From: Chthoniobacterales bacterium
Lineage (GTDB): Bacteria > Verrucomicrobiota > Verrucomicrobiia > Chthoniobacterales > UBA6821
Assembly (NCBI GenBank): GCA_044326465.1
Contig: JBIRBD010000001.1
Location: 1-41,762, forward strand
DNA: 41,762 nt
Direction of reading: 5' to 3'
Part shown: positions 1 to 41,595 of the stretch, in pieces
Layout: each line of letters opens with the position of its first letter
Numbering within the stretch: the first letter of the stretch is position 1
Notes under the pieces: generated by a model
Databases searched by the model: none
Seen by the model: the letters and a program-made list of their open reading frames with translations, nothing else
Told to the model about the DNA's origin: nothing
Translations under genes and position numbers: made by a program

Positions 1-28
1 CCACCTGTACCCCTTGCCGTCACTTAAT
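1..28 (-). repeat. Family C repeat, partial copy cut by the window edge
   Basis: ccacctgtaccccttgccgtcacttaat is repeated 28/28 at 220..247. Its reverse complement (ttaagtgacggcaagggg...) is the conserved core also seen at 20918..20935 and 41487..41504. Confidence 0.7.
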
Positions 29-115: not shown

Positions 116-279
116 GTGAACGAACAATGGCGTCAACTTAAGACAATTAAGACAAAACTCGTCGAATAAAATTTGCTCTTTTTTCCGTAGGCCTTACTTA
201 CCTGTCATCTGAACCCCTGCCACCTGTACCCCTTGCCGTCACTTAATTCGTTAAATTTTAACGGCATTGCGTGAACGAA
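116..279 (-). repeat. Family C palindromic element, full copy (C1)
   Basis: Read on the minus strand it runs ttcgttcac-gc-aatgccgtt..ttaagtgacggcaagggg, then a GG-rich heptamer run (ggtacag gtggcag gggttca gatgaca ggtaagt), aaaaaaga, an AT-rich stretch, and cttaagttgacgccattgttcgttcac. The architecture matches 41466..41595, and the ends are inverted repeats of each other. Confidence 0.6.
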
Positions 280-6251: not shown

Positions 6252-6327
6252 GCCGGCATAGCTCAGTTGGTAGAGCAGCTGATTTGTAATCAGCCGGTCG
6301 TCGGTTCGAGTCCGACTGCCGGCTCCA
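6252..6327 (+). tRNA. tRNA-Thr (anticodon TGT), CCA encoded
   Basis: I folded the cloverleaf by hand. The acceptor stem is gccggca/tgccggc, the D arm gctc-agttggta-gagc, the anticodon arm gctga-tTTGTAa-tcagc, the variable loop cggtc, and the T arm gtcgg-ttcgagt-ccgac. The discriminator is t and the 3' cca sits at 6325..6327. Confidence 0.93.
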
Positions 6328-20896: not shown

Positions 20897-20997
20897 CAAT
20901 GCCGTCAACTTAAGGCGTTAAGTGACGGCAAGGGGTTCAGGTGACAGGGTTATAGGCTACAGGTAAGTAGGCCTACGGCAAAAAGAAAAAAATTTAT
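20897..20997 (+). repeat. Family C element, copy C2 (distal end missing)
   Basis: The sequence begins caatgccgtcaacttaag-gcg-ttaagtgacggcaagggg, in which gccgtcaacttaaggcgttaagtgacggc (20901..20929) folds as a 12-bp stem with a 1-nt bulge. A heptamer run follows (ggttcag gtgacag ggttata ggctaca ggtaagt aggccta), then cggcaaaaagaaaaaaatttat. It is collinear with C1 and C3 up to that point. Confidence 0.65.
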
Positions 20998-21173
20998 CGG
21001 ATTATACAGTGTTTCGCTACGAATTAGTATGAAATATTCGGGCTAGTTTTTAAATTCATGAACCAATCCTGGAAGCCTTTGTCTAACGCGCCTATTTCAT
21101 ACTTTATCTGGTGATGCTTGCAAAGCCTGACGAGTATATATGCTATCCGCCTATTTTTAAACTCCTAAGTTAC

Positions 21174-23985: not shown

Positions 23986-24169
23986 ACCCGTTCAGAAGAA
24001 CGGATCAGTGAAGAGTAAAGAGTGAAGGGTAGAGAGTATTTTTAGTCTGAAATTAGACGATCATTTGAAATCTACTCTCATACAATCCCTCTTTAGAAAA
24101 CAATTAATAGAAAATTTTGTTTTCACACGATTTACTCTTTATCCTTCACAACCGTTCTGCTGAACGGTT
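23986..24169. repeat. Composite palindrome filling the rpsR/gltB convergent spacer
   Basis: The outer inverted repeat is acccgttcagaagaacgg (23986..24003) and ccgttctgctgaacggtt (24152..24169), and each half is also a local hairpin ccgttc-N4-gaacgg. The inner heptamer arrays are gtgaaga gtaaaga gtgaagg gtagaga gta (24008..24038) and tactctttatccttcac (24133..24149). Confidence 0.75.
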
Positions 24170-38452: not shown

Positions 38453-38482
38453 GGCTACAGCCTACAGGCTACAGGTTACAGG
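38453..38482 (+). repeat. Unpaired heptamer array GGCTACA GCCTACA GGCTACA GGTTACA GG
   Basis: These are four tandem heptamers 9 nt from the hldD start codon, where they read cctgtaa cctgtag cctgtag gctgtag in hldD sense. They are related to the heptamer runs inside family C (ggctaca ggtaagt). Confidence 0.7.
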
Positions 38483-41465: not shown

Positions 41466-41595
41466 CAATGGTATCAACTTAAGGAAATAAGTGACGGCAA
41501 GGGGCTAGAGGCACCAGGTTTGAATAGGTCTTCGACAAAAAGAAGAGAATATAGTTAACACATTTTCTCTTAAGTTGACGGCATTATGTGAACGA
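41466..41595 (+). repeat. Family C palindromic element, full copy (C3, 130 bp)
   Basis: The order is caatggtatcaacttaagg-aaa-taagtgacggcaagggg, then gctagag gcaccag gtttgaa taggtct, then tcgacaaaaagaagagaat..., then tcttaagttgacggcattatgtgaacga. The two ends are inverted repeats (caatgNNNtcaacttaag / cttaagttgacggcatt). Confidence 0.7.

Follow-up and report, generated by a model that had tools for sequence, protein, structure and literature searches.

The window, by which we mean the whole stretch of 41,762 nucleotides analyzed here, carries four copies of a short repeat, family C, all of them at the places where a sequence-only reading of the same DNA had put them. The first, C1, is a full-length copy of 145 bp on the minus strand (positions 125-269; nhmmer model positions 1-134, E=2e-35). 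From its sequence and alignment it comprises a right inverted repeat (125-142), the core of a conserved module that we call M (177-193), a heptamer tract seen here as its C-rich complement (about 199-228), an inner repeat (229-246) and a degenerate left inverted repeat (252-269). Two identical 10-bp segments bracket it, at 115-124 (CGTGAACGAA, or TTCGTTCACG in the orientation of the element) and at 270-279. The "GTGAACGA" ends, previously taken for a part of the element, are this 10-bp target-site duplication, and the element proper covers 125-269. At the very edge of the window, positions 1-28 (minus strand) hold heptamers and an inner repeat (core match at 10-27, weak nhmmer hit at 2-34) and are identical to 220-247 at 28/28 nucleotides, as had been reported; the left inverted repeat is absent from this fragment and the contig begins there.

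The two other copies lie on the plus strand, close to genes. C2 (20897-21002; nhmmer model positions 1-107, E=1.3e-25) is truncated and has no right inverted repeat. Its left inverted repeat (20897-20914) and inner repeat (20918-20935) are separated by a loop at 20915-20917 and followed by the heptamer tract (about 20935-20962) and the M module (20963-20986). This copy lies between hisS and aspS, with 24 nt separating it from the ATG of aspS. The distance of 28 nt given earlier between its hairpin and that ATG was recovered, as was the false TTG start, which falls at 20906-20908 inside the repeat end. C2 was missing from the syntenic hisS-aspS spacers of five congeners, whose spacers are unalignable with this one (coding identity about 70-75%). 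C3 (41466-41586; nhmmer model positions 1-133, E=1.4e-26), upstream of yajC, is a degenerate full-length copy of 121 bp with its left inverted repeat at 41466-41483, inner repeat at 41487-41504 and right inverted repeat at 41569-41586. Its flanks show no recognizable duplication (4/10 matches).

The window's own genome (G000) is a 1.96-Mb verrucomicrobial (Chthoniobacterales) assembly in 218 contigs, 96.7% complete and with 42.7% G+C. The 18-nt core TTAAGTGACGGCAAGGGG has 25 matches in it at up to 2 mismatches while the reversed control has none, and a profile built from ten full copies recovered 80 copies or fragments with nhmmer, 54 of them with E<1e-8. The core is thus repeated elsewhere in the genome, as had been supposed. 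Of these hits, 22 run from end to end (118-145 bp), and the whole set sums to 7.3 kb, or 0.37% of the genome. The copies are spread over many contigs and are mostly intergenic (judged with an ORF-based gene proxy). As many as 28 of the 80 hits are located at most 250 bp from a contig end, versus an expectation of 5.6%. Family C is a major cause of assembly breaks in this MAG, and since the assembly breaks at this repeat, the counts are lower bounds.

We derived the anatomy of the element from an alignment of the 22 full-length copies. The left end is an 18-bp inverted repeat, CAATGCCGTCAACTTAAG, followed after 3-4 nt by an inner inverted copy of itself, TTAAGT(T)GACGGCA, whose last bases are altered (..GGCAAGGGG versus ..GGCATTG), AGGGG replacing TTG. 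These two repeats pair into a local hairpin of 12-13 bp; the hairpin described earlier in C2 has about 13 bp and a single bulge. After the inner copy come a tract of NNN(N)CAGG units of 7-8 nt each, the conserved M module TAAGTAAGGCCTACGGCAAAAAGA, an AT-rich segment that exists in two or three discrete sub-family versions and, finally, the right inverted repeat CTTAAGTTGACGCCATTG. This order agrees with the one deduced from the window, that is, left end, hairpin, heptamers, AAAAAGA with an AT-rich stretch and right end. All 22 full-length copies have 18-bp ends of the form CAATGCCGTCAACTTAAG / CTTAAGTTGACG(C/G)CATTG, which are terminal inverted repeats, and the inverted repeat has 79 matches in the genome at up to 3 mismatches. 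In a second sub-family (CAATGCTGGTTACTTAAT ... TTAAGTAACAGCA) all three repeats have changed in step. The M module can itself fold into a mini-hairpin, GCC-TAC-GGC, of which GTC-TTC-GAC is a compensatory variant (for instance at 20970-20986 and 41528-41544 of the window), and conservation of its core GGCCTTCGGC extends to the heptamer-bearing spacers of congeners that have no IS4-type ends.

The flanks of the element carry the signature of transposition. A duplication of exactly 10 bp was perfect in 8 of 21 copies and matched at 7/10 or better in 15 of 21, compared to a mean of 3.8/10 across copies and of 2.8/10 for the next 10 nt outward, and no perfect flank match occurred in any other register among these 21 copies. 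The duplicated sequences vary from locus to locus (TCCGTTCACA, AACAAACAGC, TGTTTAGGAG, AACCTAAACT and others), and it is because they differ between loci that they can be regarded as true target duplications.

Filled and empty versions of one site were also recovered. The genome contains 12 copies of a heptamer-armed palindromic repeat of roughly 200 bp, and three of them, on contigs C117, C178, and C188, carry family C at one and the same position, the left terminal hairpin of the palindromic repeat (CCGTTCA-N-GAACGG), into which family C preferentially lands, with the duplication TCCGTTCACA. The nine others are uninterrupted and serve as empty paralogous sites with precise boundaries; one of these empty copies lies in the window at 23986-24169. 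Since at least two sub-types are represented among the three inserts, this site must have been hit more than once.

Most of the duplications read nnCGTTCAnn, and CGTTCA is the left arm of small hairpins of the form (GTA)CCCGTTCA-N-TGAACGGG(TA). In sense orientation, CCCGTTCA occurs 16 times in 3' flanks, after stop codons, and once in 5' flanks. A minority of family C copies is found in GGGYTARCCC-like sites, the target of the partner insertion sequence (IS) described below. A strict requirement for a hairpin at the target holds only partly: YGTTYA is present in the duplication in 15 of 35 right flanks and the complementary arm in 6-10, versus a background of 6%. The target was reversed in four of the right flanks examined.

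A candidate for the enzyme is present in the same assembly. Contig C149 carries at 171-1665 an IS of 1,495 bp with ends CAATGCCGTTTACTTAAT / CTTAAGTAAACGGCATTG and a single ORF of 419 aa, which matches the Pfam families DDE_Tnp_1 (1.7e-16) and Nterm_IS4 (1.9e-16) and the NCBIfam family transpos_IS4_1 (226 bits, cutoff 115). It displays the Y-x2-R-x3-E-x6-K (YREK) signature in the form Y-PQ-R-WEI-E-LMFDEI-K. The ORF is full length and intact, given that its homologues measure 392-412 aa, and these same homologues rule out a frameshifted transposase, which a second, C-terminal ORF had led us to suspect. Among the eight DDE_Tnp_1 loci of the genome, only C149 is flanked by the family C inverted repeat. 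The IS4 subgroup is defined by a size of 1400-1650 bp, ends of the type -AATR--------WTW and direct repeats of 10-13 bp (Table 1 in PMC2266710). With a size of 1,488-1,495 bp, AATG at positions 2-5 and TTA at positions 14-16 of CAATGCCGTTTACTTAAT, and duplications of 10 bp, the partner IS fits, from its sequence, the IS4 subgroup of the IS4 family in size, ends and duplication length.

The ends of the C149 IS match those of the main MITE sub-family (..GTCAAC..) at 15 of 18 positions, and those of related IS copies, CAATGC(C/T)GGTTACTTAAG, match the second sub-family at 17 of 18 (L052 and L047). The 10-bp duplications of these related copies are perfect for L050 and L052 and agree at 9/10 for L047; their sites are either of the GGGYTARCCC type (L050 and L047) or end in TTAACCC (L052) and are located inside a conserved 30-bp palindrome. 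Beyond the ends of about 18 bp we detected no homology between MITE and IS, including no subterminal similarity, and the exact GTCAAC end was on none of the nine related IS copies from the own assembly, congeners, a mis-labelled MAG contig and metagenome contigs. Since the MITE and the IS have only their ends in common, and since none of these nine IS copies bears the exact GTCAAC end, mobilization by the C149 enzyme is inferred. The C149 IS, which is found on a 1.9-kb contig of a MAG, could be mis-binned. The same IS, with a 79% identical transposase, sits in the verrucomicrobial palindrome motif on a 2-kb contig (L041, CAIKYO010000408.1) of a MAG labelled Burkholderiales, and that contig is probably mis-binned. 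The motif GTATGAAATATTCGGGCTAG of this palindrome is also present in the window at 21026-21045, with an inverted partner near 21095-21110, and in about 24 copies in the genome. In six congeners, 33-mers spanning GTATGAAATATTCGGGCTAG are 86-100% identical, and it is into the full palindrome, TGAAATATCCGGGTTAACCCGGATATTTCA, that the IS4-type insertion sequence inserts.

From the terminal repeats, the target duplications, the filled and empty sites and the partner IS, we conclude with a probability of roughly 0.88 that family C is a non-autonomous DNA transposon (MITE) moved in trans by an IS4-family transposase and that its interior was captured. The IS4-subgroup DDE transposase of C149 would act in trans on family C. 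By analogy with Tn5 and Tn10, it would bind the two outer repeats, excise the element and reinsert it at a staggered cut of 10 bp, from which the 10-bp duplication would result. The cut-and-paste transposition of Tn5 and Tn10 is established knowledge.

A small, abundant, palindromic and intergenic repeat associated with REP-like CCGTTCA hairpins could also bring to mind a REP/REPIN element moved by a RAYT (Y1) tyrosine transposase. We found no match to Y1_Tnp (PF01797) in this 96.7%-complete assembly, and neither a fixed 10-bp duplication nor 18-bp repeats common to a DDE insertion sequence are features of REPINs, the ends of family C having moreover neither a GTAG nor a CGTC tag (PMC3733652). 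For want of a Y1 transposase, this explanation can be considered effectively refuted, and we give it almost no weight.

The position of the copies relative to genes and their capacity to fold raise the question of a role as RNA. According to simple ORF-based calls, the left end faces the stop codon of the neighboring gene in 29 of 35 cases (29 versus 6, p about 1e-4), usually at less than 30 nt. In 29 distinct left modules, 92% of the cells of the local hairpin are paired and 4 of its pairs have changes in both partners, and the left and right ends can pair into a hairpin of the whole element (-42 kcal/mol, z = -4.4; whole-element folds range from z -4.4 to -5). These observations would suit a selected structured RNA or regulatory element, such as a 3' UTR stabilizer, a terminator or a processing site, whose inverted ends would be incidental. 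However, three repeats changing in step are expected of a structure and equally of three co-evolving transposase-binding sites, so this covariation provides no evidence for a role as RNA. C1 folds no better than shuffled sequence, and Rfam 15 at its gathering threshold yielded no match to the element, the sole hit in the window being the tRNA at 6252-6324. In one sense the left hairpin is followed by AAGGGG, in the other by ATTG and the target; as no T-run follows it, the hairpin is not a canonical intrinsic terminator, and the terminator scan called none there. The orientation bias results at least partly from the target hairpins located after stop codons, where CCCGTTCA is present in sense orientation 16 times, versus once upstream of genes. 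Finally, the 10-bp duplications, the IS with the same ends and the filled and empty sites all speak for transposition. We thus regard a selected RNA element as very improbable compared to a MITE.

The same data clarify the polarity of the element. The sequence-only reading had proposed that the C-rich strand lies in the sense of the adjoining gene, which is correct for C2 and C3 but is contradicted by the genome as a whole: among 22 gene starts facing a copy, the G-rich strand is in sense in 16 and the C-rich strand in 6. C2 and C3 are among the six of 35 cases in which the left end does not face a stop codon, and this is why the opposite rule had been derived from them. Six ORFs end inside the left inverted repeat of a family C copy, from which they take their last codons and stop (..MPST*, ..MPPT*, ..MPLT*, ..MQVT*); these are C172:7328-8464, C196:8332-8919, C43:10779-11960, C27:7938-9563, C74:6452-7168, and C65:35109-36143. 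Two annotation traps can thereby be corrected, the false TTG starts in the repeat end and the element-derived stops of these six ORFs. Hairpins in 3' UTRs, newly acquired stop codons and changes to leaders are the likely effects of family C on its host, and they are incidental.

The heptamer tract is the most variable part of the element. Its mean pairwise identity is 0.54, compared to 0.68 for the AT-rich segment and 0.82-0.86 for the ends, the hairpin and the M module. Far from being no more variable than the rest, the tract thus has the lowest identity of all segments, although it is not the sole hypervariable one as had been proposed, the AT-rich segment varying as well. Tract lengths cluster at 20-23, 27-29, 35-37, 57, and 80 nt, which correspond to whole 7-8-nt units. 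Most copies have 2-4 heptamers and a few up to about 10, rather than the 4-6 per copy announced earlier.

We found 91 NNN(N)CAGG arrays of at least three units in the genome and none in shuffled sequence. Every intact family C copy carries such an array, 35 of the 91 adjoin a family C module, and MITEs of sister species with the same inverted repeats have CACAAAG arrays next to their ends, all of which could suggest that family C is the source of the CAGG-type arrays and that solitary ones, such as 38453-38482 in the window, are its remnants. But 56 of the 91 arrays have no family C module nearby, and the array at 38453-38482 has neither a hairpin head nor an M module beside it, so that its interpretation as a remnant was not retained. 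Arrays with an M-like core but without these inverted repeats also exist in four congeners devoid of family C, and a second type of head precedes the same arrays. Of the earlier idea that family C is a vehicle that carries and seeds heptamer arrays, the first half stands, the element being mobile and carrying an array that varies in length, whereas the seeding does not agree with the 56 separate arrays, and we consider it improbable.

Two heads occur before the arrays, the family C hairpin (H2) and a CCGTTCA hairpin (H1), and two tails after them, the M module (T2) and ATTTTTGCTTTGGTCATTCAGTAC... (T1). The four combinations were all recovered (H1T1 11, H1T2 5, H2T1 4, and H2T2 27; heads and tails are associated, Fisher p = 2e-4). 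Of 26 internal 3' truncation points of family C, 11 coincide with the 3' edge of the tract (model positions 64-70), and three or four of the H2T1 chimeras are flanked on the left by the left arm of an H1 hairpin. The tract is a junction at which element halves swap. The H2T1 form may have arisen when a MITE inserted into the hairpin of an H1T1 element and a deletion followed between the two directly repeated arrays. More generally, the tract would change in length by slipped-strand mispairing and would recombine with similar arrays of other elements, producing head/tail chimeras. The H1-T1 combination forms a repeat family of its own, GTACCCGTTCA-N-TGAACGGGTAAGGGG, a nearly invariant CTCAGGCACCAGGTTTACAGGCTACAGG and then ATTTTTGCTTTGGTCATTCAGTACTTAGAA..., with at least 11 copies, several directly after stop codons, on contigs C14, C92, C94, C110, C125, C133, C145, C187, C203, and others. 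In the congener G002, a 266-bp MITE bounded by the same IS4-type ends has an interior similar to the tail of this H1-T1 family.

One could go further and view the tract as a recombination hub that grafts a transposase-recognized head onto hairpin-heptamer elements without family C inverted repeats and works in the opposite direction as well; the MITE and the array-armed spacer elements found throughout the genus would then form a single exchanging pool. We put this forward tentatively, as an unlikely but conceivable extension of the MITE reading. If it were true, the IS4-type ends would be a dispersal route of array-plus-core units to new gene junctions, and the doubled left end would offer the transposase, through an inner repeat that is not cleavable, a third site of binding that biases the choice of ends. 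The swapping of heads and tails across a microsatellite-like tract is only a mildly unusual point in what is otherwise an ordinary MITE/IS pair.

MITEs derived from insertion sequences are well described (reviewed in PMC3184786 and PMC10969869). The partner of family C shares with the IS4-subgroup insertion sequences the -AATR...WTW ends and the DDE/YREK transposase with Nterm_IS4, and the 10-bp duplication of family C compares to 10-13 bp in this subgroup, about one helical turn (PMC2266710). As in the MIC231/IS231 cassettes of Bacillus cereus, IS ends bracket an unrelated cargo (PMC2266710). Unlike MIC231, however, family C has a non-coding cargo (hairpin, heptamer tract and core) and no passenger gene, and it differs from IS4-subgroup systems by its left end doubled into a hairpin and by its host, a verrucomicrobium. 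In the survey of 2008, Chlamydiae/Verrucomicrobia were pooled with other phyla as "Others" (PMC2266710). Our literature search found no paper on MITEs in Chthoniobacterales.

Other modular repeats resemble family C in part. The BOX elements of Streptococcus pneumoniae, with the structure boxA-boxB(n)-boxC, have variable internal units between conserved ends, and partial or chimeric forms of them are common. No transposase partner has, to our knowledge, been assigned to them, nor has a target duplication been defined. Family C is modular like BOX but has an inferred transposase partner and a defined target duplication. A further parallel is offered by the heptamer repeats (STRR) of cyanobacteria, in which small dispersed repeats and minitransposons are embedded (reportedly described by Elhai et al. 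in 2008), and by the Nezha MITE. Tiny mobile elements beside intergenic tandem heptamer arrays and nested insertions are common to that system and to family C, although the phylum, the sequences and the assigned transposase family differ.

IS1397 and ISKpn1 are insertion sequences that target REP palindromes, and ISs of this kind are reported to belong mainly to families other than IS4. Family C differs from them in being an IS4-type MITE that uses the left arm of the hairpin (CGTTCA) and generates a 10-bp duplication, in a genome without RAYT. Insertion into REP palindromes is known (PMC1525189), and family C likewise prefers a small repeated extragenic hairpin downstream of genes. By targeting such a hairpin, an element avoids coding sequence and inserts in a set orientation. 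Like the BrickBuilt MITE of Porphyromonas gingivalis, which is always intergenic, family C is restricted to one species and has small inverted ends and a variable internal tandem repeat (PMC4596501). BrickBuilt consists mostly of its repeat, with a unit of 23 nt, whereas the units of family C are of 7-8 nt, imperfect and few, and the duplication length, the target and the partner IS are not the same (PMC4596501).

The full family C element was in none of 40 relatives and thus only in the genome of the window among 41. A 29-mer of family C had no match in the collection of species-representative genomes, and an 18-mer recovered only four contigs in public metagenomes, all of unrelated sequence. 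Family C is species-specific. The inverted repeat, for its part, numbers 63 in this genome versus 1-4 per genome in six of the twelve species of the genus, and in the congeners it bounds other cargo (CACAAAG arrays) at the same CGTTCA target. Four congeners (G002, G007, G009, and G011) have CAGG heptamers and the AAGTAAGGCCTWCGGCAAAAA core without the family C inverted repeats; the weak profile matches in these genomes span only "CAGG heptamers + AAGTAAGGCCTTCGGCAAAAA", and a complementary C-rich arm follows such array-plus-core spacers in two of the four. Since the array-plus-core unit exists without the inverted repeats in four congeners, it was probably captured by the MITE rather than made by it. 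In this scenario, a genus-wide pair of IS4-type ends would have captured, in this lineage, one half of an array-plus-core spacer element that was already present, before amplifying.

The best pair of copies is 94% identical, most pairs are 79-89% identical and no two copies are the same; many duplications have one to three mismatches. MITEs of another family, A (CTAAAAACGG... ends), lie inside family C copies at several sites (C52:2488-2800, C196:8903-9113, C172:1-191, and C86:141-248), and family A was active after family C at these nested sites. The divergence of the copies, the decay of the duplications and the nesting of family A all indicate that the expansion is not recent, and family C may no longer be active.

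This work names the enzyme family, the CGTTCA hairpin target and the exact borders of the repeat. The transposon probably acquired the heptamer arrays of this lineage and did not produce them, which narrows the search for the maker of the arrays.
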